DNA of 62,652 nt, counting the filler, from Sphacelaria rigidula (Eukaryota), in assembly GCA_964200075.2 (NCBI GenBank). It is 10 parts of 10 records of this genome, joined end to end, with 100 filler letters (N's around TTAATTAATTAA, not from the genome) between each part and the next. Parts side by side here need not be neighbours in the genome. Positions count along the whole stretch, not along the records: positions 1 to 6,176 come from CAXNAA020021728.1; 9 more parts are not named here. The stretch is one strand, 5' to 3'. Position 1 is the first letter of the stretch. The number at the start of each line of letters is the position of its first letter. Below, one piece after another: positions 1-59,000 of the stretch. Under the pieces are notes generated by a model. That model was not told the DNA's origin and did not search any database. It saw only the letters and a program-made list of their open reading frames with translations. The position numbers and the translations under genes were made by a program.

Positions 1-697
1 GACACACTTATGAGCCTCGTCTTTCGTGCAACCAAATACCCCCCCCCCTATCGTAGGATGACTCCATGTGTGCACCACGGTCTTCAGGGGCTTCTTGCAC
101 AAGCCACACTGTGACATCATCAACCTTACTCTCCCACGACGCTTGTGATACGAACTGTGGTTCGTTTGACTATTAATACTCTCGTAAGCTACCTTTCATC
201 CGGTAAGGATGGGGGGAGAAGAGAGAGATAACGGAACGTCTCCTGTTTATGCGACTGCCTCCGCCTCGACTAGTACTCAGGCCCAACATGTTTGCTGCTG
301 CTACCGCAAGGGTCCACGGTTCGGACAAATCATCGCCGATTCCTTTCACCAAATCCACGATTGATCGAAAGAGAGAAAAAAGTCGACCGCTGGCCAAACA
401 GGTCTCCAAGCAACGTTCGCGCCATTCCACGTGCCTGAGCTTCGCGTACCTGGGTTGCAACGCTGAAAAACAAAGCGTAAGGCTTGATTCGTGCCGTACG
501 AATCAATCACACTAGAATCAACTAATTTCCGGACGAATCACTAATTCGTCCGACCCTTGCAAGGGTCACAACGCGGTCTCTTGTTGAAAAAAAAAGCGCT
601 GAATTTCACCCCTAAAATGCGGTCAACATCGCTGGTGGCAATCGGCCTTGCTGGAAGCAAAAGTAATTGCACGATGCAGTACAAGTAGTAGCAGTAT

Positions 698-735
<38 letters not shown>

Positions 736-1153
736 AAAATACTACTAGTAGTAATGAAGGGTCACACCATGCTTGGGGATCCTACCAGCCTAGCAAACCT
801 GCCGCACTGTGGTCCGGACCCTTGCAGTGCGGTACCTAACGATGTGCGGGGGGATACATGGCCCATCACGCGTACGACCCGCCTCAGTTTCCCGTTTCCC
901 TCTTGTGACATATTCAATCCCCCGCCCTCCTCGGGAAGAGCACGTAGCCCCAGTACAACGCGGATTATGTAGCACTTCAGGCGCGCTCTCGGCAGGAATC
1001 CTTCTCCATCGTAGACGCGTAAAATCCCAACAAATCTACGCGTACACTAAAAGCAACATGATCAAAAGCGTGCACTCTCGCATAAAAGCGCACAAAAAGC
1101 CTATCGAGGATGGTCCAAGGTCATGACAAACCGACTCGCAACACACTCCGTAC

Positions 1154-3405
1154 CTGAGCCCCCAGAAGTCTCAGCGTGTTGGCGCAAAGCTCCTTTCGAC
1201 CGCTCTTGCGTGCTAGGCTCGCTAATTTTAACCATGTTCCGAGATCCTGCGCATGCGCGTGTGGGGCCAAAATATGAAAAAGGGCAAAACAAACGCGAGT
1301 CAGAGTGGGACGGGGGGGGGGGGTGCGGGGTGTACTAATGATCTTGTTGGCATAGTCATGAGACCGTTGACCTCGCATCCCTACAAAGCCGGGATGGAGC
1401 ACGCTGCGTGTTCGTCGGACCAGGCTTGCAACAAATCACCGAGCGCGAAGCGCCGTGGTGTGTTCGGCGAGTCGCATGAAGGGTGAGTTGCATCATGCTA
1501 AGAGTGTCCGGCCCGAAGCGTACTGATTATCTTGAATTAGGATGACAGCCTACAATGAGTTCCTTCATTTCCTGGTATTGCCGCTTCCAGAGACAGCCAC
1601 GGCTTATACACTGTCCCATGGGTGTCTCACCATTTTAACACTATATGATACGATCATCTCCTTTGCGCAAAGTTGAGGTTCTCCCACGCCGCACAGTATG
1701 ATCTACTTCTATCACTATCACGGTTTCCGCGAAAAAGACGCCAGCGCGCAAAAACAAAAATGGTAACCTGGTTGCCTAGGTTACGCAGTTTTACAGCGTC
1801 CTTGCCAACCGACGCCAACCTTACAGGGAGTCCGCCGCTACAAAGCCGGGACGAAGCACGCCGGGTTTTCGCCGGACCAGGCTACTGCGAGGCGAAACGG
1901 GAGGGACGGGGGTTGACAAGGCACCACAAACTCACACAGACTAAATACGCACGATATTATTTACAGTGAAGAACAAAAAATCGAGGAGGATAAAAAAGAA
2001 GCAACGTCAAACCGAAAGAAAAGAGAGAAATCGCGCGGCGGAAAATGCGGTTCATCCAAAGATCATGCGTAAGAACGAAATAATAAACCTCTCGAATGAC
2101 GAGACTCTCTCCACTCCACTCCTCGCCCAAGTCATCAAGCATTACACAATTCAAGAAGCAACATCCTGACATTAAGCCATGCCCCAGGCCTCAGCTACCT
2201 CTCGTCTCGTATGGGTGTATGCAAGTTTTCTCTACTTTACTTCGTCGATTAAAAAACCCCCCGGATATTTCGAGAGGAAGTGATTTCTGACATGAAAAAA
2301 AAAATAGTAATAGCAAAAAAAATCTTCACCGCTGAAAACAAAATGTTCACATGAAAAAAACGCAGTTCTTTGCGTGGATAAAGGGAAACATCTTCATATA
2401 AGAGGCAATTTCTCCACACACGAGTCACGATATATGCCAGGCGATACACTACAGTATCAATGTATCGGCTCCTTTTTCCCGTGAGTACTACATTTTGTTT
2501 TTCGACCAAGGGGAGACATTTTCTCGAAGGACGAACCTCGCGAGGCTTGAGCACCAGGGACCGTACCGCGAGGATTCCCCTCCAAACATCCACATCCTTC
2601 GGTACCCACTGTAGCCTTGCCGACCACTTTGCGCGGAGGTTGCTCTGCAAAAGTATCCAGGAACACCGACGCGAAGGCAGAATGAGAAAAGAGCCAGGGA
2701 ATACGGTGCGAGGAGGAGGGTCAGGCGGTGAGCAGTGCTATGGTAGATGTGCACTTCTAGCGCAAAATCTCGTCTGGTTCACGGGCGCCTAACAATTTTA
2801 GAGGCACAAGAAAATGGGTCAGGGCATCCCCGTTTGCGAATTCACTCGGGATATCCCTAGCACATTGGAATAGTAATCCTGGCTTACTCTCACATAATAT
2901 ATTAGGAAGTGCGACAAGTAAAAAACAATAATGAAAATAATGAAGAAACAGTATCGTTAGTGCTAGTACTAGTATCACTATTAGTATCAGTACCAACGTA
3001 AGTATTGGTATTGGTGGTAGTATTAGTATTGGTATTAAAAAGAGTAATAGTATTACTAACCCTAACCCTAATCCCGACCCAAGGCGCACGAGACCCTCCC
3101 TCGGGCAGGGGGGGGCGTACTCATTTGTTGCTTGCCTTAGTCATTTGGTCCTCGGGCAGGGGGGGTGCGTAGATTCCCCTGGGCAGAGTGGGCGTTGGTA
3201 GACCTCAAATCGACCCCGCAGGCGCCGATTTTGACAAAAACACGTTTTGGACGAGCTGGGTTCACTGCTCACTTGCCCCGAACCATGAAGTTTCTCAGAA
3301 CTTTCTTGAGTCTAAAATCAAGTAGCCATCCCTGTCAACTATTTTGTACGAACATTTCTTTAGGTCTACTGAGTGGTGGTTGTAGTGGTGATGATGGTGG
3401 TGGCT

Positions 3406-3469
<64 letters not shown>

Positions 3470-5224
3470 TAGTAGTAGTGGTAGTAGTAATAGAAGTAAT
3501 AGAAGTAATAGTAGTAGGGTTAGTGTTAATTTGTAATATTCCATGATATTTCCCATCAACCATTGTGTACCAATATTTCTCTAGGTCCCCTCCCAACACC
3601 ACCAGCACCACCACTACCACTCCAACCACCACCATCACCACCACTGCTGCTGCACTCACCCGATGCTCCGCTACTTCGGACCAGCGTCTGTCCAGCTCCC
3701 CACCTTCCGCTCCCTGGCCTTTGCTCGGGGGTGGACCTAGCGCGCCGGCGTCCTTCACCAGCCTGACTCACACAAACAACACAATATATCTCAAACGGTG
3801 AAATCCAACGTTCCAAGCGTCGGAAGTTCGTTCACAAGCATAACATTCTGGCATCGGAATTGGAAACCCGTGAACTTCCTCGCGTAATGTTCGTTGCCGG
3901 ACTTTACGCCGCAGAGCAACGAAACATGAGACGAGATGGCTCTCTAGGTATTCCTCATACACGCATCGCGGGTCGGCAGGATGGCTCAGTTGGTAACCTC
4001 GGGACCCTCTGACGGTTGGGAAATGTGTTCGAATCTCGATGGAGTCACACGATCTGGGATGTTTTCTCACACCATAAAATTCGACTTCACGGTCGACGAG
4101 GGAAAGGCACCACTGAACCCCTCTCACGAATAAAATGTAAGCCAAGCGCCACAGGAGGAAGGTGGGGAGTGCTCAAACAGAAGAAAGAAAAAGAACGCTC
4201 CTGTGTTGGCCTTGCTCCTTTCCTCCTGTGCGACCCCGGCTGATGCTCCTACATATGCTGAAGGAAGTATAGTGATTTGCGCATCATCATAGACGACACA
4301 CAAACATACCCCCCCCTGTCTTTTTTCCCTTTTCCCTGTTTTTTCTCTGTTAATCGCTGTTATATTCTCCATTTTTTTCTCTATTTTTTCCTTCTTTGCT
4401 TGCATGGTCCTATTTTCCGTCTTTTCTCCCTTTTTTCTATTTCACTTGTTTCCTCTTCTTTTTTCATCCCTTATTTCTTCACGTATATTTTTTCTCTTCA
4501 GCGATACTCCATTCGCTTTCTTCCTCCCTTTATCCTCCTTGACTTTCCCCTCCTCTCAAGTTTCCTTGAACCAGCATTTCCATCCATCAACCTCGGGTAC
4601 ATCTGTCTAATGACCACGGCTATATTCGTAGTGGATTCGTGAAAGCTTTTGCGTAGTAATCACCCAACAATTATACCAATCTACCGATCAAGCCACCATT
4701 CAATCAATGTTCAGCCTTTCAAGATTGGCACCACACGCACCCGCCTCACACTAAAACCAAGTGAACGCTTGATTTTATATCAACAAAAGAAACATCACCC
4801 CTCTCGTTTTCAATAGGGACATCAAAATCTGAACAGACTGTACGGTACAATGAACTCGCAACTCCAGGGGAAGCTGCGCCGATCTCGGACGATACGAGGG
4901 AGCCCTATTCACATGTATACGTGCACAGGTACACAGATGCATAGGTACATAGATACATAGGTACATATATACATAAGTACGTACATGTATAGATACGTAC
5001 GTACATGAACACGCAGATACGTGAATACGCCCGCCTGTACGTACATACACACATAAATACATAGATTCATATATACATGCGCATACAGCACTATCAATTT
5101 TGGATTATGACGATTGATCAGAGTAAAAACAGGACGCTGCAGGCGCGCGTCGGGCACTTGAAAAAAGAGTAAATCGATCACCGCAAAGTAGAGGGCCGAT
5201 TCATCTCAAGGGACGATGGGGGGG

Positions 5225-7970: not shown

Positions 7971-8037
7971 CGTACTCATTTGTTGCTTGCCTTAGTCGTT
8001 TGACCATTGACCACGCATCCCTTTCGAGACGGAGCAT
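7971..8037 (-). mobile_element. Subfamily B of the G/C-tract-associated repeat; other copies 3116-3149, ~10545-10612, 12553-12608
   Basis: GGGGCGTACTCATTTGTTGCTTGCCTTAGTC(A/G)TTTGACCATTGACCACGCATCCC aligns colinearly with the subfamily A end. Confidence 0.8.
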
Positions 8038-9816: not shown

Positions 9817-11331
9817 TTCTTCTTCCTCCTCCTCCTCCTCTTCCTCCTCCTCCTCGACAGGCGTGCGCCACATTTCCGCAGTTGCTATAACAAACCCATA
9901 AACGCAAAAGGTGAAGATGCATCGTAGTAAAAGCTTTCATATCTTTCGAGACCATCGCATTTCTCTTGCTTCTTCTTTTCAAGCGTACCACAGGCAACAG
10001 CAGTAGCAGCAGCAGCGGCAGCGGCAGCGGCAGCATCGCCAGCACTACTACCACCACTACCACTATCGCCATCACTCCCACCGCTATCAGCAAGTTTCGG
10101 ACCGTCGCACCTGTCTGTAATGGAAAACGAGTCCTTGAAACTTCGTATTGTGGGCGTGCCTCGGTAGTCTGCATCTGGCCTAACCGCCGGCGGTCGCGTG
10201 GTAACTCCCGGCATCACCCGCCCACCGCGACCTCTCCCTCCCAGACCAGATGCTCGGTCCCAGAGACACTTGTCCAACGTGGGTTGCCCCTTCGCAACCG
10301 CCGCAAACTTGATGCCGGCGGATTTTCGGCCGTGGAACTCGGCAGTGCTTGCCTATGGTCAAACGCCGCAGGATTTCAAGATTGCGCAACGGTGCATGCA
10401 GGGAAATCGCGGGGGGGGGGGGGGGGAGGGTGTACTCATGATCATGCATTCCATAGTCATAAGACCATTGACCTGCGGGGGGGGAGGTGGACTCATGATC
10501 ATGCATGCCATAGTCATCTGACCATTGAAGGGAAGGGGGGGGGGCGTATTTATTCGTTGCTTGCCTTAGTCGTTTGGCCATGGACCACGCATCCCTCCCG
10601 AGACAGTGCACTCAGGGGAAAGCGGGGGGGGCAACGAGAATATTCATTCGGCGACGTCCTTTACTCTGCACGGAGGAGGCATTCATGAATCGTGCCCTGA
10701 AAAAGGAGTAGACTACGCGCCATCCCGCCGCTAATAATCCTATTAGGCAACGCTTGCAGGTCCATGTTTCGGGATTGAAAAGTTGGTTCAAGCTGCTGTC
10801 GAGGGCGCGTGAGGCTACTGTTGTATTAACCCGCTACACTCGGGACATGATGCTGTGGTATTGACTCCACTCGGCCACAGAAACGAAAGCCGAAGGGACC
10901 CTCTTCGTCATCCGATAGACACCCTCTCATCTCTTGGGTTACAAAATAATCAGCGAGCCAATAAAAAAGACGTCCCTAGAATTCAAGTAGTGAGTGACAC
11001 ATAATGAGACCGAACGGGTTTGGTTGTTCTGAGCTCCTTCCCCTGCCTCAAGAGTAGCCTGCGAATCTGACTCCATACAATTACTTGAAAAATAAAGTTT
11101 CGCGTCAATTGCCCTGTAGCTTTACAGACAACGCACCATGGCCAGCGCGATGTACGCCTCCACGAGGCGTTCGAGGGCAACGACCAAAGCGGGTATATCC
11201 TCGGCGACGGACGTGGTACCCGAAATCGCGGATGCCGCTTGCTCCACCGGTAGCGGGCTCCGCGCGCGCTTGAGTTCGTTCAGAAGCCCTTTGGCGGCGT
11301 GTATTTTTTCCGTGGAGATGTTCTGCCTGAA
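9176..11331 (-). CDS. ATM: ATM serine/threonine kinase fragment (end of FAT region to start of PI3K-like catalytic domain); exons ~11137-11331, 10111-10352, 9176-9284
   Basis: Phase-compatible exons give ...[14 protein letters not shown]...[19 protein letters not shown]...[74 protein letters not shown] is the ATM-type signature. The upstream acceptor of the first exon is uncertain by a few nt. Confidence 0.9.
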
Positions 11332-17067: not shown

Positions 17068-17320
17068 GGAGTCATCCTACGATAGGGGGGGGGGGTATTT
17101 GGTTGCACGAAAAAAGAGGCTCATCATTGTGTCAGACATCCTTCCACACTTGTGTTGCGCTTGTATTTGGTTCCAAACGGTGTCAGGGGGTATGGATGAG
17201 CGTTATTGATCCACAACAAGCTTGTTCGAACAATCGTTGCTGCTTTCAACGACGATCTGACTCGAAATTTCGAGCAACAAATGGCCCAAAATACCCCCCC
17301 CCATATCGTAGGATGACTCA
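17068..17320. mobile_element. ~250-bp MITE with GAGTCATCCTACGATA(G)n TIRs; partial copies at 1-65 and 25104-25177
   Basis: GAGTCATCCTACGATAGGGGGGG... and ...CCCCCCATATCGTAGGATGACTC are inverted ends. No clear TSD. Confidence 0.8.
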
Positions 17321-17337
17321 CAATTCATTTATCCCAC

Positions 17338-18728
17338 CATAACACAGTCCGGATAAAGACATGAAATACATGAACTAACGCTCGTTTATACTTATCCTAC
17401 TCTAACACAGCCCGGAGATAGACATGAAATAGAGCAGCTAACCGTCCTTTTTATTGAACCTACTCTAACACAGCCCGGACATAAACATGAAATAGAGAGG
17501 CTAACCCTCCTTTTACTAAACCTACTCTGAAACAGCACGGAAATAGACATGACATAGAGCAGCTAACCCTCCGTTTGATTTAGCCTACTCTAACACAGCA
17601 CGGATGAAGACATGGAATAGAGCAGCTAATCCTCCGTTTTATTTAACCTACTATAACACAGCCCGGACATAAACATGAAATAGAGCAGCTAACCCTCCGC
17701 TTTATTAACCTACTATAACACAGCCCGGACATAAGCATGAAATAGAGCAGCTAACTCTCCTTTTTATTTGACCTACTCTAACACAGCCCGGATATAGATA
17801 TGAAATAGAGCAGCTAACCCTCCGTTTTATTTAACCTACTATAACACAGCCCGGACATAAACATGAAATAGAGCAGCTAACCCTCCTTTTTATTTAACCT
17901 ACTCTAACACAGCCCGGACATCGACATAAAATAGAGCAGCTAGCCCTCCGTTTTATTTTACCCTGCTATAACACAGCCCGGATACAAACATGAAATAGAG
18001 CAGCTAACGCTCCTTTTCATTTAACCTACTATAACACAGCCCGGACATAAACATGAAATAGAGAAGCTAACCCTCTTTTTCTTTAACCTACTATAACACA
18101 GCCCGGATATAGATATGAAATAGAGCAGCTAACCCTCCGTTTTATTTAACCTACTCTAACACAGCCCGGATATAGATATGAAATAGAGCAGCTAGCCCTC
18201 CGTTGAATTTAACCTACTACTATAACACAGCCAGGACATAAACATGAAATAGAGCAGCTAACCCTCCTTTTTATTCAACCTACTATAACACAGCCCGGAC
18301 ATCGACATGAAATAGAGCAGCTAACCCTCTCTTCTTTTTAACCTACTCTAACACAGCCCGGATATCGACATAATAAAACGGAGCGGCTGACCCTCCGTTT
18401 TATTTTTACCTGCTATAACACAGCCCGGATACAAACATGAAATAGAGAAGCTAACGCTCCTTTTTATTTTACCCTACTATAACACAGCCCGGACATAGAC
18501 ATGGAATAGAGCAGCTGACCCCCCTTTTTATTTAACCTGCTCTAACACAGCCCGTACATAGACATGAAATAGAGAAGCTAACCCCCCTTTTTATTTAACC
18601 GACCATAACACAGCCCGGGTATAGGCATGAAAAGGAGAAGCTAGCCCTCCATTTTATTTAACCTACTATAACACAGCCCGGCAATAGACATGAAATAGAG
18701 CAGCTAACCCTCCTTTTTATTCAACCTA
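17338..18728. repeat. 63-bp tandem satellite, about 22 copies, running off the contig end
   Basis: Unit AACACAGCCCGGACATAAACATGAAATAGAGCAGCTAACCCTCCGTTTTATTTAACCTACTAT repeated head to tail with substitutions. Confidence 0.97.
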
Positions 18729-23409: not shown

Positions 23410-23632
23410 TGTAATGCGTGAGAGGACCGCGTGCTTAGAGGACCGCGCCGTAGTTCAAAATACCTCACGATCGACGTTTTTCAAAACCAATCGGGTCAGT
23501 CCCTGCAGGTACCACGCCCCTAACCCCAACACTAACCCTAACCCTAACCCTAACCCTAACCCTAACCCTAACCATTGAGGTGTTCAAATTCCGATGCGGT
23601 CCCCGAAGCACGCGGTCCTCTCACGCGTTACA
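23410..23632. mobile_element. 223-bp MITE with TG...CA ends, 5-bp TSD and internal (CCCTAA)n
   Basis: CCGCC|TGTAATGCGTGAGAGGACCGCGTGCTT...AAGCACGCGGTCCTCTCACGCGTTACA|CCGCC. A second terminus lies at 53280-53335. Confidence 0.88.
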
Positions 23633-24418: not shown

Positions 24419-25176
24419 TGTTTCTCTCTATCTGTGTGTGTTTGAGTGCGTGTTTGGGTGTGGGTGTGGGTGTGGGTGTGGGTGTGGGTGTGGGTGTGGG
24501 TATTCTAGTCATGCTTCTCTCCATTTCCCTGGGGCAAGACATGACTCTATCTGATATTGAGCCAACCCCCCGCCCCCCGTATATGGCCGATGTTTTGGTA
24601 TTGCGGAGTGCATCAGCACTCCTGCACCAGGTCGTCTTGCCTTCATTTGCCCACCACGTTGTCACGTTTCCGACCGGAAATGAGATACTCCGCGGAAACA
24701 ATAACGTGTCTACCGGGATTCAAATCCCCAACCTCAGCCTGGCTGCATAATAGATGCAGTATGGGTAGATTTTACAGTTGAATAGTGTCAATATCAATTG
24801 GACCACCGGGGCCAGGCGGTGAATGATTCCTGCCAGCAATACAACATGTATGTGCTGATCGGCGGTTCGAGTGTACCCTAGATTGTTGATTCAACGCACG
24901 GGGGCATCTATCTCGTCAGGACTTTGAAAGAAGTGTTCCATGTATACTTCCTCTGTCCCATAAGTCTGTATCGCTATGTTTGTACGAGCCCTTAACGATG
25001 TCCNNNNNNNNNNNNNNNNNNNNNNNNNNNNNNNNNNNNNNNNNNNNTTAATTAATTAANNNNNNNNNNNNNNNNNNNNNNNNNNNNNNNNNNNNNNNNN
25101 NNNAGGATATCTGACACACTTATGAGCCTCTTTTTTCGTGCGACCGAATACCCCCCCCCCTATCGTAGGATGACTC

Positions 25177-25515
25177 CTCAGTTGATAACCTCGAAACCTT
25201 GTGACGGTTGGGTCGTGGGTTCGAATCTCGGTGCAGTCACACGACCTGATATTTTTTCATCACACAATGCCCGACAGTGGAGAGCGACTCTGTCGTGGGT
25301 ACACAAATTCGACTCAACGGTCGTCGACGGAAAGGGACTGCTGAACCCCTCTTGCGATAAAAAAAGGCGAGCACCGCAGAAGGTGAAGTACTGAAATAAA
25401 CGTGAAAAGAAAAACTCCCATGTTGGCCTTCCTCCTGTGTGACCCCGGCTGATGCGCCCACATATACCGAAAGGTGTAGACTGGCGTCAAGAATAGATGG
25501 GATTACTACACAGAC
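25177..25515 (+). mobile_element. tRNA-derived SINE, 5' end interrupted by a MITE
   Basis: CTCAGTTGATAACCTCGAAACC...GGTTCGAATCTCGG plus the same body. The MITE end (…GGATGACTC) abuts box A. Confidence 0.85.
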
Positions 25516-31447: not shown

Positions 31448-32329
31448 GTACTCATATTATGCATGCCATTACATTTATTTGACCAGCAGCTTCGCACCCC
31501 TACAAAGCCGGGACGAGCACACCGGGTTCTCGCCGGATCAGGCTCGCACTTAATCACCAAGCGCGAAGCGCTGTGGTGTGTTCGGCGAGTCGCATGAAGG
31601 GTGGGCTGCATCCTGCCGACATTGTTTGGCCCGAAGCCTACTGAATATCTTGCATTTGAAACCGAGTACTTTGCATTTGGATGACAGCCTCTAATGAGTT
31701 GCTTCATTTTCTGGGATTGTCACTTCCAGAGACAGCCACGGCTCACCACATGAACACTGGGAATATGATCGGTCGGTGAACAGATCAGATGATGCTCGGA
31801 TATTTTTGTACACGCATCCAATCCACACACAACACTAGATTCAGACCGTTTGTCACCTCCCTCACCCATCGCCCCACCCCCCCACACATTCCGCCTAAGG
31901 TCTCCTACACTACATCGCAGCAGGAACACGATCGTACAACTCCCACAACCATACTTCAAATCAAGGTAAAAGTCAATATAGCAAGAAAATCAAATACCCT
32001 CCCTACCTAGAAGAGGCAAGCACCGCAGAAGAAAGGTGGAGAACCAAAACAAACTCGAGAAAAAATCTCGTGCGTTACCCCTCCTGCCGTGTGACCCCGG
32101 CTGGTTCGCCCAGATATACCGAAAGGTGTGGATCGGCATCCAGAAAAGATGGAACGACAACCAACACATACCTTAATCCGATTTCTTCTGTTGTAAGCCT
32201 TTTCCCCTGTGCTATTTGGTGGGAACGTGAAGTTTGGGATCTATTTGGAGTCTTTTTTTATACTCATCGAGATTTACGAACAATACTTACAGATTACGGT
32301 TACCTACCCCTAAAATCTTCTCCGCTCAC

Positions 32330-37307: not shown

Positions 37308-39340
37308 CTGTTGCCCGTTTTTCATTCGACGGCGGGAAAGGGAGTAGGGTGGGCGGGAGGCGAAGGGCGCAGAGTCTCGAGTCAGAATTATGATATGCTG
37401 GAGGGGACCAATACCCCATCTCTGGATGAGTTGACAAAAACATACACAAGTTCGGAAGGTGCTTTGTGATGGAGGCATCGTGCCATCAATGTTTCAAGGG
37501 TCGGACAAATAATGATTCATCTGAAAATTACTTGGTTTTAGAATGATGAGTCGNNNNNNNNNNNNNNNNNNNNNNNNNNNNNNNNNNNNNNNNNNNNTTA
37601 ATTAATTAANNNNNNNNNNNNNNNNNNNNNNNNNNNNNNNNNNNNNNNNNNNNACACGTCATTCCTAACCAACCTCATTGGTCGTTCTGGAGACCCGGCC
37701 CAAAAAGGGTTAAAAACCGTTCCGATATCTACGCAGTACTCTGTGCTGGGCATCTGGCGCGGACGTCTTCCGTGGTCACAGGCTAACTACCACAGGCTAG
37801 GGTAAAAGATAATCATACAAGAAAATCGGACCCAGAAACAAATCACACAAACGCGATACAAAAGGAATATAAACAAACATGAAATGAAAATACTGGAAAA
37901 GAATAAAAAGAGGAAGGAAAAAGGACTACTGCAAGCCCTCTCTGAGTTCCGATGCCATATGCGATCATTCGGGCTTCTCGAGGCAGGGTCCATTGGTCCA
38001 TTCAACACTTGAGGCTAAACAGGAAGGGAGCCAAACTCGAGAGCCACGATCACCAGCCAAGGCTATAAGAATCGCAGGGTTCCAACCTTGTTCCTCTGGA
38101 GGGACAGCTATGCGTACGAATATACTAGACATAACAGGAAAAGCACCACATGACAACACACGCCACCTCGGGGGGGAGGGGTGCGTTGGAGCCAGCAGTT
38201 GGTAGAAAACGAATACAAGGGGGGACAATGGGGGTCCTGCCACTTCCGCCATTTTCAGTTCGGTACAAGCTGGTTACGCATTCTTCCATCTCCTCCTTCC
38301 TCTCCTAAAAGTAGTGCTGTGCAAAATATGTGTGTGCACGAGTAGGCGATTGACTATGCGGTGGAGCCGTTTGGGGTAATGGGTTGTGGTCGTGAGGAAT
38401 GCAGAACACCGACAATTTACTGGCGAACAATGATGTAGTATCACGTGTCTTGCGGGGATGGCGTCGCGCGGGGGAAGGCAGTCGCGGCATGCTGTGTTCT
38501 TCGACGTATCTCGGTGTGTGGCGTTGGGCGGGTCACCCCATGAGTGAGGTTTAAAACTGTATTGAACTCTTCCAGAACCCTCTCAGCACGGTTTATCCTA
38601 GTAAAAGGCGAGCGTAAAGTTCGGGATGCGAAAGGATCGGAGTGACTGCCAGACGAGACGGAATCTCGGCGTATACCACCCAACTCCGAAAAAGCCCGTC
38701 GTCCAGAGTCCACAAACAAGAATTTGTTCGCGTCTAACCACACCCCGGACAATACGTGGTCACTAGTTGCAATGTAAGTAACATGTACCGTACGTTTAGG
38801 CCTATTGCAATTTCAACCTCGCATCCCTACGAAGCCGGGACGGAGCCCGCGGGTTTTCCTAGGACCAGGCTCACAATCACCACGCGCGAAGCGCCGTAAC
38901 GTGTTCGGCGAGTCGCCTGAGGGGTGAACTACAACCTGAAAAAATTATTCGACCGAAACGTGCCACGAGTGTTACTGCATAAGCATCTTGCACATGGATG
39001 ACAGCCTCCAATGAGTTTCTTCGTTCTCTAGTATTGCCACTTCCATAGACAGAGCCACTCAATACACTGCCTCATGGATGCCCCCCTATTTCAACACTGC
39101 GCGGTACGATGATCCCCTCTGCGCGGAGTTGAGCTTCTCCCACCCCGCATAATATGATCGATGACCATCATGGTTACCGCAAAAAACGCAAAGGGGGGGG
39201 GCGGGGCGGGGGGCGGTGATCTGGTTGCCCAGCTCACGCGGTGAGTGGCGTGTTTTACAGCGTCATTGCCAACCGACGCCGACCGTTGAAGGGATGAGGA
39301 TAAGGGGGAGGGGGGGAATCCAAACCGTTGTCTACACTAA

Positions 39341-41835
39341 ACGAGTCATTTGATCTCAGAGTGAAAAGGCAGGTTACTTGAATTGAGTATGAATGAACAA
39401 AGTCGCTTCATCCAAGACTACCTGAGGCAAATTACTTGATCAAAGTATGGGTGAAACAACGTCACTTGAGGTAAGACTACCTTAGGCGAGTTGCTTCTAC
39501 TGGGTACGGGTGAAGTACGTCACTTGATTTCAGACTAGCTGAGGCAAGTTACTTGAACTGAGTAAAGGTGAACCATGTCACTTGATTATAGAGTGCCTGA
39601 GACAATTTACTTGATGAGAGTGTAGGTGAAACAGGTCGCTGTATTTTAAATTAGCTGGGGCGAGTTACTTGAACAGAGGACAGGTTAACCCTGTGACTTG
39701 ATTCGACGCAAGTTGGGGCAAGTTACTAGAGCCGAGTACAGGGGGAAAACGTCACCTGATACCAGGTTGGGGGAGGCAAGTTACTTGATAAGAGTACATG
39801 TGAAACAGGTCGCTTGATGTAGAGGAGCTGAGGCGAGTTACTTGAACTGAGTACGGGTGTACCACGGCAACTGATACCAGATTAGGTTAGACAAGTTACT
39901 AGATAAGAAAGCATAGGTGAAACACGTCACTTGCTATTAGAGTACTGAGTGGGGTTATTTGATCGTTTGGTTTACACCTCGTTGGTGAGACAAGATACTT
40001 GAACTATACACAGCTGCTGCGATAGGCTGTGGCGACAGTCTCACACCTGCGGCATGCTAAAAGGTCGAAAACGTGGGGAGGTTTTCAGTTTTTTCAACTT
40101 TCACTGGTGTATGTTGTCACGATAGATTGAACCACCGAAACAAACTGTCAAGTCGTCAAATTCGTACAGGTAATATAGATAATTGTAGAAAAAAAGGCAA
40201 AACCGAAAATATTATCAGCCAGGGGTGGGGGGGGGGGGGGGGGGGGGGGTTTTTGGGCCCACAGCCCATTGTTTCCAGTGTTGGCAGAAAACTTTTTNNN
40301 NNNNNNNAAAAAAATAGGAAAAAAAGGGAGAGCGAGAGTGGTGGGGGGGTTTTGGGTCGTGCAGGGGGGGGGTTGGTTTGGTGCTGAGGTTTTTGGGCCC
40401 ACAGCCCATTGTTTCCATTGTTTGCATAATACTATTTCTGCACTAATTCATATGCAAAGGAGTCACTTGATTCAAGTAGAGGAAACAAGCTACATGAAAC
40501 GAGTATAGGTGAAACGAGTAACTTGATATTAGGCTATTAACTGAGGCACATTACTTGGACTGAGTATGGGCGAACCAAGTCACTTTATTTTAGAACAGCT
40601 GAGGAAATTTACATGAACCAAGTATGGTGGACCCAAGTTACTTTTTCTCAGTGTGAATAAACAAATGCACTTGATCTTGGACCAGCTGAGGCAAGTTACT
40701 TTAACCAAGTACGGGTGAACCGATTCACTTGATGTGAGATCAGCTGAGGCGGGTTACTTGATTCAAGAGTAGAAAGGTCAAGATACAAGAACACGGTATG
40801 GGGGCAACCAAGTGACTTGCTCTTAGACTAGTTGAGGCAAGTTGCTTGAACTGAGCATAGGTGGACCAAGTGACTTGATCCTAATATTGTTGCTTTGATA
40901 ATGAGGCACGCTAATTGAAATGAGCACAGCTGCTGCAGCGAAACAGACCAAAATTTGACACTCCCGATTGCTGCGATCTGCTACATCAACTATTATACAT
41001 GCAGAAAACGACGATAGCAACCCTGTTCTCGGCCTGATTCCCTCTGCATTCCCGCAAGCGCGCAAGCGAGTCACGTTACAAAACCATTTAGCACTCTATC
41101 GTGGATGCTGTGATGTGATTTCTCACCATTGAGCGGCCACGGCACTTTTCCATCTTGTCGCGATAGAGCTACGAAAACAAACTGTCAACAACTTCTCCAA
41201 CTTGTCCACCAACAATAGATGTTTTTTAGGGAGGGGGGTGTACTCGTGATCTTGTGTGCCGTGGTCACAAGACCATTGACCTTGCCTCCCTACAAAGCCG
41301 GGACGGAGCACGATCATTATCGATGGGGGGGGGTTCGACACCATCGTTTCCATTTCCGTCGCTCCATAGAGGTATACTGAATCATACAGGAAGCTAGTTC
41401 CACACTAATCTCCAAATGACACGAGTTACTGGATTTGAGTGTGGCCAACGCAAGTTAATTGAACTCAGCGTAGGTTCACCAAGTGACTTGATCTTGGACT
41501 ACCTAACGCGAGTTATTTTAACTGGTGAACGGTTGATCCTGCGTTTGGTGTTTGGCTCGTAAGGCGGGATATTTGAACTGAGTAACTGAGTACGGCTGCT
41601 TAAGCAAAAAAGACTGAAATTTGACACTCTTGATTGTCGTGATCAGCTACATCAACCACACTAGTTCCTACACGAAACGAGTTACTTAACTTGAGAGCAA
41701 CTGAGGTAAGTTACTTGAATTGAGTATGAGTGAAAAATTCACTTCATCTTAGACTAGCTGAGGCAAAAGTTACTTGCCTTTAGGCAAGCCGAGGCAAGTC
41801 ACTTGCAATGAGTAGAGGTGAAACAAGTCGCTTGA
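39341..41835. repeat. Degenerate ~58-bp satellite (two ~29-bp subunits) in blocks 39341-39960, 40458-40880 and 41420-41835
   Basis: Consensus approx. GAGGCAAGTTACTTGAACTGAGTATGGGTGAAACAAGTCACTTGATCTTAGACTAGCT, with a 58-59 nt period. Confidence 0.88.
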
Positions 41836-43003
41836 TGTTGCTGGAGGTGTCGAATTCCGGCCAAGTGTACATTTCGGAGCCAGACATTTTGACGTAGATG
41901 AGGCCCGGAGTCCGCACACGACAGAGGCGACAGGTGGGCTTTATTTCAGTATTGCTCGGCATTGCTGGCATTGGCTTGATGGACCGGTTCCATGAATCTG
42001 AGAAGAAGTTCTACCTTCGAGGTCGTATATATTGCGATTCTCATCATCAGCTACATCAGGCATAAAACATATAGTGCGCACAATAACTACGATAGCAACC
42101 ATATTTCGGCCTGGTTCTCCCTGCAGTCGTGCAAACAATTTGAAAATCTAAAATTTTTAATTTTACTGTGCCACACTATCGTGGATGCCGAAATGCAGTG
42201 TAGTGCAGTACAATCGAATGGCCACAGTCCGTTGCATCTTGTTACGATATATAGTCCACCGAAAGTGGTTGAGTCGGCGAATGCGTCCAAAAGCAAGAGG
42301 AAATTAAAGGGGAAAACACGACGACCAAAACATTTTTTTTAAGCCCGCCAAAGGGGAGGAGCGGGAGGTTGGGCGTTGGGGGGTGGGAGGATGGGGTTAC
42401 TCATAATCTTGCATGTTGTAGTGATGAGACCACTAACCTCGCATCCCTACAAAGCCGGGACGGAACACGCCGTGTTTTCGCCGGACCAAGCTCAGGGGGT
42501 GTTAGGGTTCGACAGGAAATTTCGTTTGCTACCCTTGCCGCCAGGGGGGCACACTAACAGCAGTACAGGCTGGGCCGCCTAAAAAGCGGACTTTCCTTCA
42601 GCCGGTTCTAACCGACGATCTATCGCGAGTTGTGTCTACTATGACACTTCGTGGTAATCTGCAAATCAACGCGCGTCCTTCACTTCACGTAGCACTGCGA
42701 TCTGACAAATTCCCATCAAACGAAATACCAAACTGTCAACTACGAAGTGTAGAGAGTTGAGGGTGGAATGTGGGGCGGAATTAGGGGGGGGAAACGGCTG
42801 AAATCGCACTCACGGTTACAATCGGTTGTGCCGCGGCCGCAAAGTGATGGTGCTGCACTAGTTGTGCTTGTACAACAATGCATGTCCTACTGTAGGTGCG
42901 CAGGGTCTGAGACGGCACGCAGACGAGACCTCCAGCGCCCCAAGGCGTCAGGCTTGTAGGAAACGTCAAAGTTCCGGCTGAGGTCGTTGTACACTAAAAG
43001 CAA

Positions 43004-43690: not shown

Positions 43691-43928
43691 CCTGTCCGCG
43701 TCTTGGGCGGCCCAGTCTGTACATCATATCATATTCAAAACCGATCACTTCATCCACCCACTGACGATGCCGTGGCTGTCTCTGGAAGTGGCGATACCAC
43801 AGAATAAAGCAACTCATTGTTGGCTGCCNNNNNNNNNNNNNNNNNNNNNNNNNNNNNNNNNNNNNNNNNNNNTTAATTAATTAANNNNNNNNNNNNNNNN
43901 NNNNNNNNNNNNNNNNNNNNNNNNNNNN

Positions 43929-48397: not shown

Positions 48398-50289
48398 TGT
48401 AGCAAGTACGGCAAGAGTACCGTGGTCACAAAATAAGTACGGAGTGATCCAACGATACAAGGGGTGTACTCAGTATCTTGCATGCTGCAGTCATATGATC
48501 ATTGACCTCGCGTCCCCACAAAGCCGGGACGGAGCACGCCGGGTTTCCGCCGGACCGCTCGCATTCAATCACCAAGCGCGAAGCGCCGTGATGATGTGTT
48601 CGGCGAGTCGCATGAAGGGTGACGTATATCCTGCGAAGATTTGGGAGGAGGGTTGAGTGCACGAAAGTCAGGGGCCAATGGGTGTGTCAGACCACTCAAC
48701 ACACTCACGGTACGTTTAATTTGGTTGAAACGATGTCGAGTAGTATGAATGAATTTGTCTTGCTAATAAAAAGAAGGTCAATATACAAAAAAGGGCACAC
48801 CCTGGTGCTTTTGTAGCAAAAAAGGGTAGCGCATTTTTCGCTTTGGGGCGCGGCACTGCACGCTGGCTGAACACCTCGAAAACACATTCCAGCGCCCCAG
48901 CCCCACGCCCAAGGTCCCTGGGCAGCATACCCGATCATTTTGTTTCACTTTCACAAGTGTTACTGGGCTGAACTACTGCGCCGAAAATGAGAGCCTGTGA
49001 GAGTACCCTGTTTTGTAAACAAAACAGGAGGGTACACCCTGCCCTCTGCTAAAAAGTTATATCTACCCTTTTTGTATTACTGTTGCCCCTTTTCTGTCAA
49101 GTGGTGACCCTTTTTTGTGAAGTGGTGGCCGCACCGCCGTCTCAGCGCAAGTTACGCCGAGCAGTCACAACCATAGCCATTTTCGGTAAAACTGCACCCC
49201 GCCCAAAAAGGCCGAAACCCGACGACCAGAAGAGTGTAGCCCCCTGTTGATTGGCCCGAAGACCCGGAAGAACCAACGATGCAAACAAAGGCCCCTTGTG
49301 TGCCGGACCTCACGAAGATCCAACGAACAGGGGTGAACATCTTGCCGACACACCAATCCGAACGGCATCATGCGGGGGCGGCAGCGTCAGACCGTTGCCG
49401 GAGCTGCAATTTGCCGCTCGGAAACGGAGATAGACACCAACCGGATTTCGGATTGGAGCAAGAACGCCTGAGTCCAACACCGTAGACTGTACGAGCAGCT
49501 GTCTTCCTCTCATCGCAAAACACGCTCCCTCCGACCACAACTCGGAATACCCAGAGGTGTGAGACCGACGCGCCACAACTCAAGCAACACTTTCAGAAAA
49601 CCTTCAGATTATCATGAGCAGCAAATATCAACACGCTACACCGCCGCGGAGTAATGACAATGCCCCCCACGAATGGTGTTACGCTGTCAGGCGGCGCCGA
49701 TCATTCCCTTGGCAGTAAATTGTTCACCTGGGCCCACCCCCAGAGAAACGGAGATTCACCGGCTCTGAGTATCGATTCATTATGGAAGGGTCGAAGACGT
49801 GGGCCAGATCTGCGTAGTCGCATGCACCGCCTTGTGGACACAGTCAAACGTCGACTATTCCGTTGTTCGTGTATGTTGTATTTTCGAACCCGATTTACCC
49901 TGTGCGCATTCTGCATCCGGTTATGCAGGACTAAGTCCAGTGAAAGTACCGTATGCACAAGTTTGACTCTTGTCAACACAGACGTGCCTCGCGTAGGGTC
50001 AGATGGACGATGCTGCATCTGGGTTTCATAAAAGCCGTTTCATCACTGCACAGATAACAGCCGATTTTATATTTTGGGGTTCATACAAAATATGGGGCTG
50101 AAGNNNNNNNNNNNNNNNNNNNNNNNNNNNNNNNNNNNNNNNNNNNNTTAATTAATTAANNNNNNNNNNNNNNNNNNNNNNNNNNNNNNNNNNNNNNNNN
50201 NNNGGCTTTCCACATTTCGATTTACGTGAACATTTTGCCTCCCGAAACCATGCACTTTTGGGGGGGGGGGCTATCGTAGAAAATGTCAC

Positions 50290-53000: not shown

Positions 53001-56000
53001 TCTGACAGAGCGGTTCGTAGGAGAGGCGCTAAGCAAAATCTAATAACTGCCCGTTGAGTATATCGTATACCATCACATGTGTATATCCGGGCTGTGTTCT
53101 GGTATTATAGGTTGAAGAAGGAGTAGGGTCAGCTTCTATATTTCATGTCTATGTCCAGGCTGTGTTATGGTAGGTTAAAGAAAAAGGAGGGTCAGCTTCG
53201 TCATTCCAGTCTATGTCAGGGCCATTGCTCCCCCGCCCCGAGGTTGATTGAGAGTAAGAATTTCCCACGGCAGTGTGCTTGTAATATGTGAGAGGATCGC
53301 GTGCTTCGAGGACTGCATATCTGAATATGAACATGGCTACGAGCTGGGCCGGCCATCAGTGATGTTTTAACGAAGAGTGAAGATGCTTTTGGCAATTCGA
53401 AGAGTTAGGCGCTGAAATTTTGACACGACACCTTTATCATCAATTCGGGCAACCCTGTGAGGGGTGCAGAGGAAACCCTCCCCCCGGAAGTTAGTGCGAG
53501 TTGAAGGTTCAGCAAGAACGGGGAAATGCTATCACTTCCTCAAAATTTGATAAAAACGATGACAGCTGCGGCACATACGGGCACTCGCGTCAACCACATC
53601 CTTGTAAATGTTCAGGCAAAAATACGTATAATTGGGCTTCGCGTCGCACTTTTTGTGTGACCCCGGTGGTCAAACTGACACATCAGCCTCAAATTACACA
53701 GATCAGTAGTTCGAATCCCGACACGACAAAAACAAATTTGTGCACACTAGTCGTGCATAATCTCTCGTACCTCTGGGTTGCAAAGGGTCTCGATGTTGTG
53801 GTGATGGTCTTGCTTTTGGGGGGGGTATAGCGCAGTTTTACTCATGGCATCTCTCGAACAATGTGTTCAAGGCGATTGCACTGGCATCTATTTGGATGGT
53901 GCAGTTGTCCTTTTTCTTTTCAACATACGGCGGAAATATTTTGGTTCTTCTACGGTGTAGACTCTAGATAATCTAATCTTTTATTCAGGTTGTGAACATT
54001 ATGCCCTCAGCAAATACTCAATAGTTGGTCTACAATAATATTGGAAGTGATGTCCGAGGTCTTCGAATTTTCCATGTTTTGGATTTCTCACGTGAGGTTC
54101 GAGACATAGGGCCTGTTTTCCGAAGGCTTTTCACATCACCAGCAAATACAAGTTTCTGACTCGTGCGCCAATGTTATTAAGACCCGTTCAAAGATAGCCA
54201 TATGAGGTTTTCACTTCTGCCGCCCGGCTCAAGGATGACCATTTGGGACTCGTACCCCGTTCATGACTGGTCCTATGATATTTCCACGTTTACCGTCTAC
54301 TCCACAGATGGTGCAGTCACATGAGTATGGTGCCCGGTTAATAGATCGCGCGTGGAACTGTTTTTGACACTGTCGATCATGAGTAGTATGTCGAGTGACG
54401 TTCATGTGTGTTTCCCCACGACCGGGTTGGCAATTCCCGTCTCTTAAAGTATCGGGTTTCGGCTAATGCCCACCCACAGCGAGGGCCCTAGCGCTAGCTT
54501 GTTCTTCTTCATGGCAAACAGCCCACAAACGTCTTGGCGCAAACAGCTTTGAGGTGTCGGAATTATCTTCTAGAAGAAAAGTTAGCGAGCAGGGAACAAT
54601 CCGATCGATTTATCGTATCGGTGTGATATTGCGACAACCAAACATCGCACCGCCAGGGATAAATGTATGTACTTTTCAATTGCGCCGGAGAACTTCCGTT
54701 CAATAAGTCGATGAATTTCACCCGACTTTCCAATGATTGGTTCTGTAGGCATTAGCATGATGAACATGGATAGCATGTTTCAATTTCCAGAAAAAAACTG
54801 TCGTGCTATTGTGATGTTGAACGAGCAGTGTTGAAATCGCCCCCCCCCCCCCCCCCCCCCCCCACCAGCCACAGACACCACAACCCACCCCCCACCGCAC
54901 TCCCCGCAGCCCCCCTCCANNNNNNNNNNATAAAATGATAAATTTTTTTATCTTACAAAAAAAACATCGCGGGCTATTGGGGTTTTTAAACAGGAGGTTT
55001 GAAACCCCCCCCCCCCCCCCCCCCCCAAATATGCTGCATAGCTCCAACACCCCAAATGCCTCTGTTTTTCGCATGCAGTGCAACGAACTCTCAGGTTTCA
55101 TCAAATTAGAGCCTCAGCAATCGTTCATTGACAAATCTGGTATCGATTCAAACTAAAGCGATATCTCGGGAGTCAAAATTCATGGAGGAGTTGAACCCGG
55201 ACCCCGCAATATCGGCAAACCCAGAAGCCGCTCAAATTTGATCGAAAACGCATATTTTTTCAAGATATGCATTCAAGAGCCGATCCTCAAAAATGGGGTC
55301 CAACGCCAAAATGAGATTCAGCTCGCCTTCGCAAAATCGAGATTATATGCCAAACAGTATCACTACAGGAAAGCATTTTCGCAACCAGAGTTTCTGCTGC
55401 AGTTACGCTGGTATGATTAGGTGCACCAAATGAGTGCGGTGCACACGCGTGTCGATGACAATATCACCAGAGAAGCAACGGCGGAGAGGAAGCTGCTCGC
55501 CGGTATCCTTTGTGTCTCCTCGTTCAGCGATTCTCAATCGCTGCAGAGATTGGCATCACATTTCAGTAGTACCAGCACAAAACCAGGTCGCCTAGTGTGT
55601 GCAGGCGGGTTATTGTAGCACAGCCCCAGAAACAAAATCGCGGGATGCTCCGGTTGCCGTCTCCTGTCTGTGGCGCTGACCAATGCCGATATCGATTCCT
55701 CTCTGCCTTTCTGCTTGGACAATAAGTGCCTCTGTGCGAAGTAGAACATGTCGTCGAAAAGCAGAGTAATGTTCCACTCACCGCTACTGCCCTCACATGC
55801 ACATGCAAGCAAGGAAGGTTGCGCCCTTGTGGCAAATCTATTAGTCGAAAGCTGGGGGGTGTCTTTTTTTGGAGTCGTTGATTTCACCCGACATCTTCAA
55901 AACAAGGACAACAGGAGTATGCCACATCCCAGTTGGGGGATGTATGTATGAGAGGTCAAACACTCTTGTAGACCTTTTCTTTGCGGAGTGACAAGAGATA

Positions 56001-59000
56001 CCTCGTGCGGGTGACTTAACTATTACTGACGTGACCGAGATGGGGGCTGATATCCTGCAATTGAGTTTCTCTCCTGTACAACCGGTCGCATCGTGTGTGT
56101 GGGTGTGGGTGTCTGTCGCAAAGAATTGCTATGTGAGGGAGCCATCCCAACCTGAGGCGAGAAATGGTTAGGAACAGTGATGTATCATGATTAACCACCT
56201 GCCATTGCGTTCGTGACCCGCGCCGTGAAGCGCTGATCAAGTAAATCTTGCCTGAGAATAGCTTTCGAGCAACGACAGTAGTAGTAGGCAGCAGGTGAGC
56301 AATGCTACGGTAGGGGTGCGCTTTTTTCGCGAAATTTTGTCTGGTTCAAGGGCTCCTAACGATTCTAGACGCACAAGANNNNNNNNNNNNNNNNNNNNNN
56401 NNNNNNNNNNNNNNNNNNNNNNTTAATTAATTAANNNNNNNNNNNNNNNNNNNNNNNNNNNNNNNNNNNNNNNNNNNNGCCGGGATCGGGCTCGAGGCGT
56501 TTGCTCTAACGATCAACGCGGGCATACCTATCCCCGCGTCCCCCCCCCCCCTCGAGCCTGGTCCGACGAAAACCCGGCGTGCTTCGTCCCGGCAGTGTAG
56601 GGATGCAAGGTCAATGGTTTCATGACTTCGGTATGCAAGATCATGAGTACACCCCCCTCCCGTACCCCATCTCATGCCTCGTCTTTTTCCTTTCTTTGCG
56701 GCCGTACTGCGCTTGTCACCAAATAAAAAAATACACCGGAACGGAACCAATCAGCAACCCAATACGCTTGGTGTTCCGAGTATGTGCGCTTGGACTGGGA
56801 GTATTAATGGTGATGAGCTCTGTCGTTGAGGTGGGCCGTTGATATTGCTGCGCTTGTTGATCAAAATAATGTTGCAAATTTTGTTGATGTGAACGATGCT
56901 CCTGAAAGTGGCGAATGTGCAGCGTCGCCTTTCATGTACTGTTGCTATTGCTGTTGCCCTGTATGTTCGTTTTCCCAAAGCATGCTTTGCTCTTGTTTCA
57001 CGTCTTGCGCAGCTCGAGATAGCTCTAATATCATACCTATCATACCTCGTCCGGGGAGACCTATGCATGTGTGCGGTAGGGGAGATGATATTGCTGAACA
57101 TACTGGGTGTAAAATGTCGTACAGGATGGTGGATCGAGTATTTCCATCTCTGGACTCATCTTTCAGCAGTCGATTCATTCAAAGTTTACCGCGTGCTTGT
57201 GTTTTTTTTAATATCACTGTTCGCCGCTTCCGGCATTACTTGTGCACGCCACGCGAGGTGTGCAGGAATTCTTGTTTTACAAACGTCAGTGCCGTTTCCA
57301 GTATGTTCCCTACATGGTCCTGTGTCGTGTGTCTCCTGTCGCGTGTTCCACTCACAAATGCCTTTCTACCCTTTGGTTTACTCGGTGCGGTAGTACACTT
57401 GGAGCGCACTTGCTTGGACTTGATAGTGTAGATACTCACCCGTCAAAATGTAGCACTGTCACGTGCCACATGCTCTGAGATATGACTGCTTGACTAGTAG
57501 CTCAAGAAAGCGTGTTCCGCCCCCCTTTCTATGTCGTTTTGTTTTGCCCGCGACCCGCCTCAATGACGACGGCATCACGCGGGAAACATGGAAACATGGA
57601 CACTGGTGGGCAACGTACGCTCATGGGACGGTGGACTGCACACTGATGTTCACTTCGTGAACTGTTGAAACTCTTGGATTATTCAATTGGCCATGTTACG
57701 TGGGTCAGTTGTTCAATGTGTCATCCTTCACACGCTTGTGCATCGCCATGTACAACTTGCTCTTCGCAGCGGTGCTGATGCTGCATGAAAGTCAGGTGAC
57801 GCACACATTCATCAATGTCGCTGACACTACACACACCATACAAGCCGTGCCGTCCGGTGAAGGTGCTTTACGCTTGTCTTGGTCGATTTTTTAGTTTTAT
57901 CTACCGTTCCAACCCACGCACGATAGTTTTGTGTAGTGTAGTGTAGTGTAGTGTACCGTGCACTGTGAACGAAGGCACGTTCAAGATACCTGTTGCACGC
58001 AAGTGTACTGACTGTGCCCTTATCGTCAACGAACAAAGCGAAATTCGTCGAATTGTCTGTACACTCCACTTGTAGTCTTGGTCCGCTTCGAACAGTGGGC
58101 GTGTCTCACATGGTAAGGGGTTTCAATGTGCACTGTCAAATACCACGATGTACAAGCTTGGTCAAGCTACATACATGGGGTGATGCAGATCCGCATCAGC
58201 TATTAATAGTTGTCAATACCTTGCGTTGGCACCCTACGATTCTCACACCCATTATAAGCTCGTTTCAACTAGTGTAGGTAGCACCTTCATTTAATTTTGG
58301 TGATGTTGACCCCTGAGGTTGCATGTGCACATCCATCGTGCATTTTGATTTGCATGTATGTCGTATGTTATGATATGTTCAGGGTTTTGTGACGTGCGAT
58401 GAAGTGGACTGGACTATGAGGAGATATTTCGGTTTGCTGTATGGTCACATGGGCAGGTGAGGTGGTGTGTTTGCCGCCTCAACTGTGTCGACGTTGCATC
58501 TCGTTATCGTTCCTTCGTGGATGAGTCATTATTCATAGGAGTAGTCAACGTTGATCGTTCGTTGATCGTCGCGCACCTGCTTTGTGGGAAGAAGGTGATC
58601 GTTTGTTTGTGGTCGTGTCGTCTTGTACAATCAAGGAGGCACTAGTGCGTGTAAATGTTTTCCGTTGGTATTATGCCTTGTCAAGCAATGAGAACAGCTC
58701 CGTAAGAGTGTAGAGTTGGGGAATTGCCTCCCCCTGCATTCGAATGTTGAGATGCGTGGGCGATGAAGCCATGATCTAGCAGTGCTTGGCTGGATTGTGT
58801 TGGTGACTACTGAGCATTGATGGTCTCACAACCCAACATGATGTGTGTTCTACGTTGGTCATGACGTGTCCTGTTGACCCTGGGTCTTCGGTATTGATGG
58901 CAATTTTACTGGTACTGCTGTAGTCCTGTAACAATCTGCGCTCCCTCCCGTGTACTGTACATACACCACATCGTCGGAAATGGTACTGTACTGCAGGGCT

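Follow-up and report, generated by a model that had tools for sequence, protein, structure and literature searches.

C-tailed LINE 3' ends and a 555-bp non-coding companion with a preference for pre-existing G runs in the genome of Sphacelaria rigidula

The window analyzed here, a stretch of 62,652 nucleotides, consists of 10 contigs of the Sphacelaria rigidula assembly GCA_964200075.2 (244 Mb in 27,214 contigs), separated by spacers of the form N-TTAATTAATTAA-N. Profiles built from 24 full-length copies of one sequence type (A) and 15 LINE 3' ends detected 14 copies or fragments in seven of the ten contigs (contigs 1, 2, 3, 6, 7, 8, and 10; Table 1), and the reversed window, used as a control, gave no profile match. 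A sequence-only reading of this DNA had counted at least 12 copies in seven contigs and proposed a single family with one shared exact end and the other end variably cut. The count and the shared end were confirmed: the end G(n)-Y-GTACTCAT is kept in 12 of the 14 copies, the exceptions being the copy at 38815, from which it is absent, and the copy at 43766, which is interrupted by a contig end. Truncated copies are also present, but they do not form a single family. Two sequence types, A (GTACTCATGATC...) and B (GTACTCATTTGTTG...), have the fixed end in common and are approximately 78% alike over 59 bases, and we therefore treat them as two types. Across the genome, a B 26-mer has 2955 exact matches and an A 27-mer has 1725, against none for the reversed-pattern controls; both counts are lower bounds because the copies have diverged. 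Judged from the window only, there is approximately one retroposon 3' end per 5 kb. The pair is one of the commonest repeats of the S. rigidula genome, and its presence accounts for the clustering of both G runs and contig breaks.

Table 1 Retroposon copies and associated features in the window (positions along the whole stretch).
Feature	Position	Strand	Basis or detail
Family A, full-length non-autonomous copy, ~555 bp	1332..1883	-	3' end 1332, 5' end 1883; profile positions 1-562, E 5e-175
(C)n tail and 3' target copy (G-rich when read on the + strand)	1307..1331	-	Sequence
5' copy of the target, G-rich run at end, duplication decayed	1884..1912	-	Sequence; statistics over other copies
46-bp repeat R, inner copy beside the tail; many short A copies stop at its border	1381..1426	-	
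46-bp repeat R, 5'-terminal copy of full-length A; 87% identity with the inner one	1838..1883	-	
Box common to A and the first ~50 bases of the full-length LINE	1788..1826	-	87% over 39 bp to L364, E 4e-7
Type B LINE 3' end, ~32-38 bp, clear target duplication with terminal G run	3117..3154	-	
Type B LINE 3' end, typical 65-bp piece	7972..8036	-	
A 3' piece, 43 bp, first of a three-insertion stack	10432..10474	-	Profile search
A 3' piece, 40 bp, second of the stack	10489..10528	-	Profile search
B piece, 66 bp, third of the stack	10546..10611	-	Profile search
B piece, interrupted by contig start	12553..12607	+	Profile search
A, 5'-truncated, profile 1-276	31448..31745	-	Profile search
A without its 3' 38 bases, profile 39-502	38815..39286	-	Profile search
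A 3' piece, 73 bp	41240..41312	-	Profile search
A piece, 97 bp, stops at R border	42397..42493	-	Profile search
A fragment, interrupted by contig end	43766..43828	+	Profile search
A 3' piece, 175 bp	48466..48641	-	Profile search
A piece, 98 bp, stops at R border	56553..56650	+	Profile search
63-bp monomer array, 22 copies, reaches contig end; matches LINE 5' UTR monomers	17327..18728	+	77% to L364 over 550-620 bp
Short stretch of 63-bp monomer	53071..53222	-	
Empty target: end of an unrelated inverted-repeat element with a 10-base G run; filled at other loci	30..65	-	

Family A is a non-coding element of approximately 555–565 bp with fixed ends. Among 29 other copies selected by score, 24 of these best-scoring copies span both ends (559–567 bases), and the mean pairwise identity is 84%. 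The sense strand runs from a fixed 5' end to ...ATGAGTAC and then into a C run, which constitutes a (C)n tail; the element is thus C-tailed, and its earlier description as tail-less is not borne out. A 46-bp segment (R) at the 5' end is repeated directly before the tail, and a head-to-tail dimer of A at locus L022, with a period of 462, ends at the R border. ORFs of at least 100 aa are absent from the window copy. An Rfam scan of seven A loci (E up to 5) detected no tRNA, 5S, 7SL, or ribozyme family inside A. The tRNA, 5S, or 7SL head of a SINE in the strict sense was accordingly not seen in these seven loci, where a very diverged head may still be present, nor was the hammerhead ribozyme that a retrozyme carries in its monomer. 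Inspection by eye revealed no convincing HDV-like or hammerhead motif in A or B.

The B pieces are the 3' end of an approximately 6-kb LINE with an APE-type endonuclease and a reverse transcriptase (RT) in a single frame. Among the 30 best RVT_1 loci, the tail was present within 1.5 kb only at L078, where the RT runs straight into the B tail. As for the other best RVT_1 loci as a source of B, L071 belongs to the same family as L078 and the rest belong to different families. A search with a related RT gave 30 best loci, six of which were too short downstream and 24 of which were usable (at least 1080 bases downstream). The B tail lies 0.9–1.3 kb past the RT match in 20 of the 24 usable loci and is followed by a C run in 19 of those 20. 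Pfam searches identified RVT_1 (E 4e-28 and 4e-20) and Exo_endo_phos_2 (E 3e-7, above the cut-off in one of two pieces); PF14529 was above the cut-off in L262 and weak in L267, and the endonuclease is located upstream of the RT. An RT/endonuclease frame, which the sequence-only reading had proposed to look for by extending the consensus, is thus present, with both domains upstream of the B tail. The stop codon of the frame lies six bases ahead of the C run, and hence the tail shared with A is coding sequence in the LINE. An intact relative, P0001 (1360 aa, 72% identical), carries the endonuclease (PF14529 and PF03372) and RT in one frame, and its C-terminal peptide is the peptide encoded by the B tail. 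The best named protein relatives are from Ectocarpus sp. CCAP 1310/34 (59% identity), and the solved structures nearest to the intact homologue are those of L1 ORF2p and R2. Other samples supplied four contigs extending to the 3' end, and the B tail and the C run are present in every one of them. No intact driver was seen in this assembly: among the 30 best RT loci, which are 80–88% alike, almost every one contains stops or only short frames. In a quick phylogenetic tree, six LINE copies of this genome, all on long end branches, fall together with the intact relatives and with proteins of Ectocarpus sp. CCAP 1310/34 (SH-aLRT 99), separately from eight other LINE RTs of this genome; the Ectocarpus proteins carry no clade label. 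The LINE-type RT, the N-terminal APE-type endonuclease, the fixed 3' end, 5' truncation, target site duplications (TSDs) of variable length, and the lack of an LTR or TIR are those of a non-LTR retrotransposon. RT relatives comprising P0018 and the clusters of P0009, P0012, P0015, and P0016 form a high-copy sister clade with approximately 50% identity, and P0018 keeps a similar motif close to its C-terminus.

The full-length LINE is estimated from coordinates at approximately 5.7–6.1 kb. Five of ten LINE 5' regions start with a common motif after a C-rich stretch, and a 41-bp box located there is followed by 63-bp monomers that match the window arrays at 17327–18728 and 53071–53222. The first of these arrays contains 22 monomers, as against at most approximately 10 in the LINE 5' UTR stretches that were read. 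This array may have arisen by expansion of a promoter array, or it may represent a satellite derived from the LINE 5' UTR. Family A resembles the LINE at both of its ends. Its tail is 78% identical to the LINE tail over 59 bp, and near its 5' end it matches the 41-bp box (80–90%) in five of the ten LINE 5' regions. Judged from sequence, the box common to A and the LINE 5' end is a candidate internal promoter. No LINE with an A-type tail was found among 30 loci read of 2971 candidates. Given this result and the difference of approximately 22% between the tails, the real driver of A may be a sister family of the B LINE.

The flanks of the insertions were analyzed in 70 B and 70 A copies, taken as the first 30 loci of each pattern list and 40 from the next 70, with loci near contig ends skipped; this choice of loci biases the sample toward large contigs and young copies. 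After removal of nine B and six A copies that were cut off, 61 B and 64 A copies remained. Duplications with at least five matching non-G bases were present in 19/61 B and 14/64 A copies, compared with 0.7% and 1.3% of shuffled flank pairs, respectively. They are 10–20 bp long including the G run, and are clear in only a quarter to a third of the copies, the rest being all-G, decayed, or absent. A run of at least four G's occurs within 30 bases of the truncated end in 47/61 B and 49/64 A copies, compared with 8.6% of background windows. The reappearance of a G tract beyond the truncated end, which had been noted from individual tracts in the window, all of them present, is thus frequent among these insertions. 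In several copies (e.g., L036, L040, L111, and L156), the G run extends further beside the tail than at the opposite end, which shows that the element adds C's of its own; tail and target are generally inseparable where both are G. The next copy begins within 60 bases in 4/61 B and 9/64 A copies, as exemplified by the stack at 10432–10611 in the window.

The G runs could in principle be nothing more than element tail, slippage, or assembly noise, with no targeting at all. Run lengths do vary widely, many contigs break at G runs, and the inseparability of tail and target would be expected on such a reading. It was examined at empty sites, using an unrelated element of approximately 250 bp with inverted ends that hold a G run, 1485 ends of which occur genome-wide. 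Thirty distinct ends of this repeat were read: 24 are empty and have 7–19 G's, five are filled, and one is unclear. One such empty paralogous site lies within the window itself. Fixed retroposon ends follow within 20 bases at 94 of the 1485 ends, always via a G-rich spacer of variable length, whereas approximately five would be expected (an estimate from the window density of one end per 5 kb and from random 7-mers). This corresponds to a target preference of at least 15-fold at this one site class. Moreover, the G run recurs at the truncated end, which bears no tail. The empty-site test refutes the absence of targeting in substance, and we regard that reading as having next to no chance of being correct. 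The G tracts are not merely element sequence, a point on which the sequence-only reading had made its own proposal depend: the runs pre-exist and are preferred, and both A and B sit preferentially in pre-existing G runs. Its wider proposal, a retroposon inserted by target-primed reverse transcription (TPRT) with a preference for G/C runs and variable target duplications, is supported by the duplications, the excess of G runs, and the RT partner.

Several further observations concern the insertion sites. The MITE-like element of approximately 250 bp with inverted ends is located at 17069–17320 in the window, with additional ends at 1–65 and 25113–25177, and approximately 6% of its ends hold an insertion of the retroposon pair. 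A second recurring flank (...CCCGAGGA followed by a G-rich run) was struck independently at L024, L025, L058, L189, and L235, and is probably another repeat serving as a target. On contig C35 near 4150 (L096/L310), telomere-like CCCTAA units separate a B copy, at its truncated end, from the target duplication; similar units occur at 3057–3075 in the window, just before the copy at 3117, and an array of them at 23518–23573. Polymorphic empty alleles were sought in contigs of four public runs over window positions 700–5000, where no joint skipping either insertion was present among the best-supported joints, contigs being of a kind that cannot show absence. Contigs from the public runs X1, X3, and X4 pass from the flank into the window A copy, and the A insertion is therefore common to them.

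The sequence-only reading knew of no described family with this target, but such families are on record. According to the accessible part of a study of Ectocarpus repeats and its supplement (PMC12477816), RTEX-1, RTEX-2, RTEX-N1, and RTEX-N2 have C-rich TSDs, and RTEX-1a and RTEX-2 also have (C)n ends; RTEX-1a_Ec32 has a single EN-RT frame, a (C)n 3' end, and a C-rich TSD in 5867 bp. The non-autonomous RTEX-N1_Ec32 of Ectocarpus sp. 7 (approximately 600 bp; 607 and 604 bp) has a C-rich TSD and may be present in tandem, its 60-bp 3' end is 83% like that of RTEX-1/2, and it has weak homology to the 5' region of RTEX-2 (PMC12477816, accessible part). The main text of that study ranks RTEX-N1 first among the families in abundance (more than 6000 copies) and uses neither the term "C-rich" nor "homopolymer". 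From its size (2.48 Mb), RTEX-N1 would correspond to the Ectocarpus "Sower" repeat, given as approximately 2.5 Mb in the portion of PMC3145265 available to us. Among the texts that could be searched, the combination of a C tail and a C-rich duplication is in print only as a supplementary-table note, which the empty-site test converts into a measured target preference.

Compared by description, A has all of the listed features of RTEX-N1: it is non-coding, of similar length (~555–565 bp, against ~600 bp), and has C-rich TSDs, a 59-bp tail that is 78% like that of its LINE (matching the shared 3' 60 bp), homology to a LINE 5' end through the 41-bp box, a tandem dimer, and thousands of copies. 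It differs in residing in another genome (244 Mb) and in the greater age of its full-length copies (84% mean pairwise identity); its 46-bp terminal repeat and its truncation peaks are absent from the RTEX-N1 rows of the supplement. The LINE likewise resembles RTEX-1a/1b/2_Ec32 (5.5–5.9 kb) as described, with EN and RT in a single frame, a (C)n end, a C-rich TSD, and a length of approximately 5.7–6.1 kb, the single frame being known from the intact relative since the copies in this genome are broken. These broken copies and the 63-bp monomer array in the 5' UTR, which the RTEX-1a/1b/2 rows do not mention, set it apart. The LINE and A together likely correspond to the Ectocarpus families RTEX-1/2 and RTEX-N1; because the match rests on described features, neither sequence identity nor the RTEX label is implied. 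This kind of system is thus already catalogued in Ectocarpus, and the present additions are the measured targeting of G runs and a truncation peak at 65 bases. No paper on the mechanism of a poly(C)-tailed LINE was found in the literature searched, which mostly excluded subscription journals. For comparison, the tails of green-algal RTEX elements are given as (CA)n, (CAA)n, (CCAT)n, (ACAATG)n, and (CTTGTAA)n in the accessible part of PMC3747384.

Penelope-like elements of the Chlamys type offer another precedent for this target. They insert at (C)n repeats, have pseudo-LTRs, and include head-to-tail non-autonomous copies with the 3' ends of autonomous elements (PMC8557442, as far as accessible), and Chlamys families are present in Ectocarpus. 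If A were a non-autonomous element of this type, its (C)n targets, its 46-bp terminal direct repeat, and its one tandem dimer (L022) would all be accounted for. The insertion at (C)n is indeed the same, but both the tail and the 5' box of A match the APE/RT LINE. Chlamys elements combine a GIY-YIG endonuclease with a telomerase-related RT, as opposed to the APE endonuclease and LINE RT of the present pair, and no GIY-YIG domain was detected in seven scanned pieces of the tail-sharing LINE. In addition, the accessible annotation gives Ectocarpus Chlamys-1 an (A)n end, while it is RTEX-N1 that is C-rich and "can be present in tandem" (PMC12477816). A Chlamys origin of A is therefore very improbable. 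The sequence-only reading had left a LINE, a SINE, and a Penelope-like element open; the RT partner and the shared tail uphold its LINE/SINE guess, and the APE-type endonuclease and LINE-type RT of the partner leave the Penelope-like part unsupported.

We propose that the copies are LINE 3' ends and a 555-bp hitchhiker, both C-tailed and preferring pre-existing G runs, likely inserted by TPRT with pairing between a nicked G run and the C tail of the RNA, and likely equivalent to the Ectocarpus families RTEX-1/2 and RTEX-N1. We give this reading a probability of approximately 90%. The shared tail, the protein domains, the duplications ending in G runs, the G runs at empty sites, and the enrichment of insertions there are direct observations. 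In SINE/LINE pairs, the LINE protein recognizes a specific 3' sequence (PMC3747384, accessible part), and the anatomy of the pair fits TPRT with the same kind of 3'-end recognition. As in stringent-type SINE/LINE pairs, the non-autonomous element borrows the LINE 3' sequence (PMC3747384, accessible part), but here the shared tail is coding in the LINE and no tRNA, 5S, or 7SL head was found. The LINE protein would copy RNA by TPRT after recognizing its last ~65 bases, which are coding in the LINE, and A would be copied for the same reason. Its endonuclease may nick the G-rich strand within or just past the G run, and the nicked run would then pair with the C tail of the RNA and prime copying. 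L1 nicks T runs for its poly(A), and the presumed nick at a G run would be the mirror image of that chemistry. As with L1, a homopolymer tail has its complement in the run at the target, but here the tail consists of C's and the target of G's. The C tail probably arises by transcription of the C run in the source copy and not by later addition. Each insertion would duplicate the G run and thereby create a new target, leading to stacked copies. With P0001 available in public data, a LINE that would prime on oligo-G/oligo-C and not on T/A is open to direct assay.

The other end of the short copies had been described as cut at different points. Short copies of this kind do occur, but their ends are clustered, not smoothly distributed, and full-length A has a fixed end. 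B ends pile up at 59–71 bases: 41 of 61 copies stop there, as do 15 of 36 copies from loci chosen without a B query. A ends cluster at 27–55, 90–101 (the inner R border), 291–308, and 543–563, with three at 497–511 near the shared box. Under the proposed mechanism, these peaks may represent stops of copying or RNA protected by the protein, and the 65-base peak provides a ready prediction for the minimal RNA of the LINE. Folding of five 3' or 5' pieces gave no result better than shuffles (z -1.4 to +1.5), and a role of RNA structure is therefore not supported. A short hairpin common to A and B near the B truncation peak was noted by eye. No description of a sharp truncation peak near 65 bases was found in the searchable literature, mostly without subscription journals; a short tail-only family may perhaps already be present in Ectocarpus consensus sets or in Repbase.

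The B peak also raises the question of whether the 65-base pieces are a self-propagating micro-element: a bare coding tail and C run, cut from read-through RNA and passed on between short copies once the insertion of long ones had waned. Such an element would explain the 41 of 61 ends at 59–71 bases, and an 18-mer inside the B border occurs 3967 times, compared with 722 for one just outside (5.5 times), whereas in long copies the two are similarly frequent (2 and 3 of 15). There are also at least 22 identical 72-mers. However, the ends are spread over approximately 12 bases instead of falling at one point, no letter is private to the short class in the copies read, no promoter was identified within the 65 bases, and A has comparable peaks at 90–101 and 291–308. 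The age comparison between short and long B copies is mixed. Among copies not chosen with a B query, short copies differ from the commonest letters of the family at 3.2/58 positions (n = 15) and long copies at 7.7/58 (n = 9; p = 0.008), but two long rows look mis-anchored, which inflates the difference count of the long copies. The gap is gone in a pattern-selected sample (p = 0.31) and relative to RT-bearing copies (p = 0.15), and young long copies may be collapsed in this fragmented assembly. We consider the micro-element unlikely, though clearly less so than a Chlamys origin of A or the absence of targeting. If it did exist, the family would build its own targets, each duplicated G run seeding the next insertion, and the pieces would mark the minimal RNA substrate of the enzyme.

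Other repeats lie outside the system of A and the LINE. A 1.5-kb repeat with internal inverted segments is present at 28554–30043 and 43929–45414 of the window, with 81% identity between the two contigs, and a 58-bp tandem array occupies 39367–39866. At L015:175–274, a near-perfect hairpin of approximately 100 bases gave weak scores to microRNA precursor models, below their cut-offs, and is probably a small inverted-repeat element.
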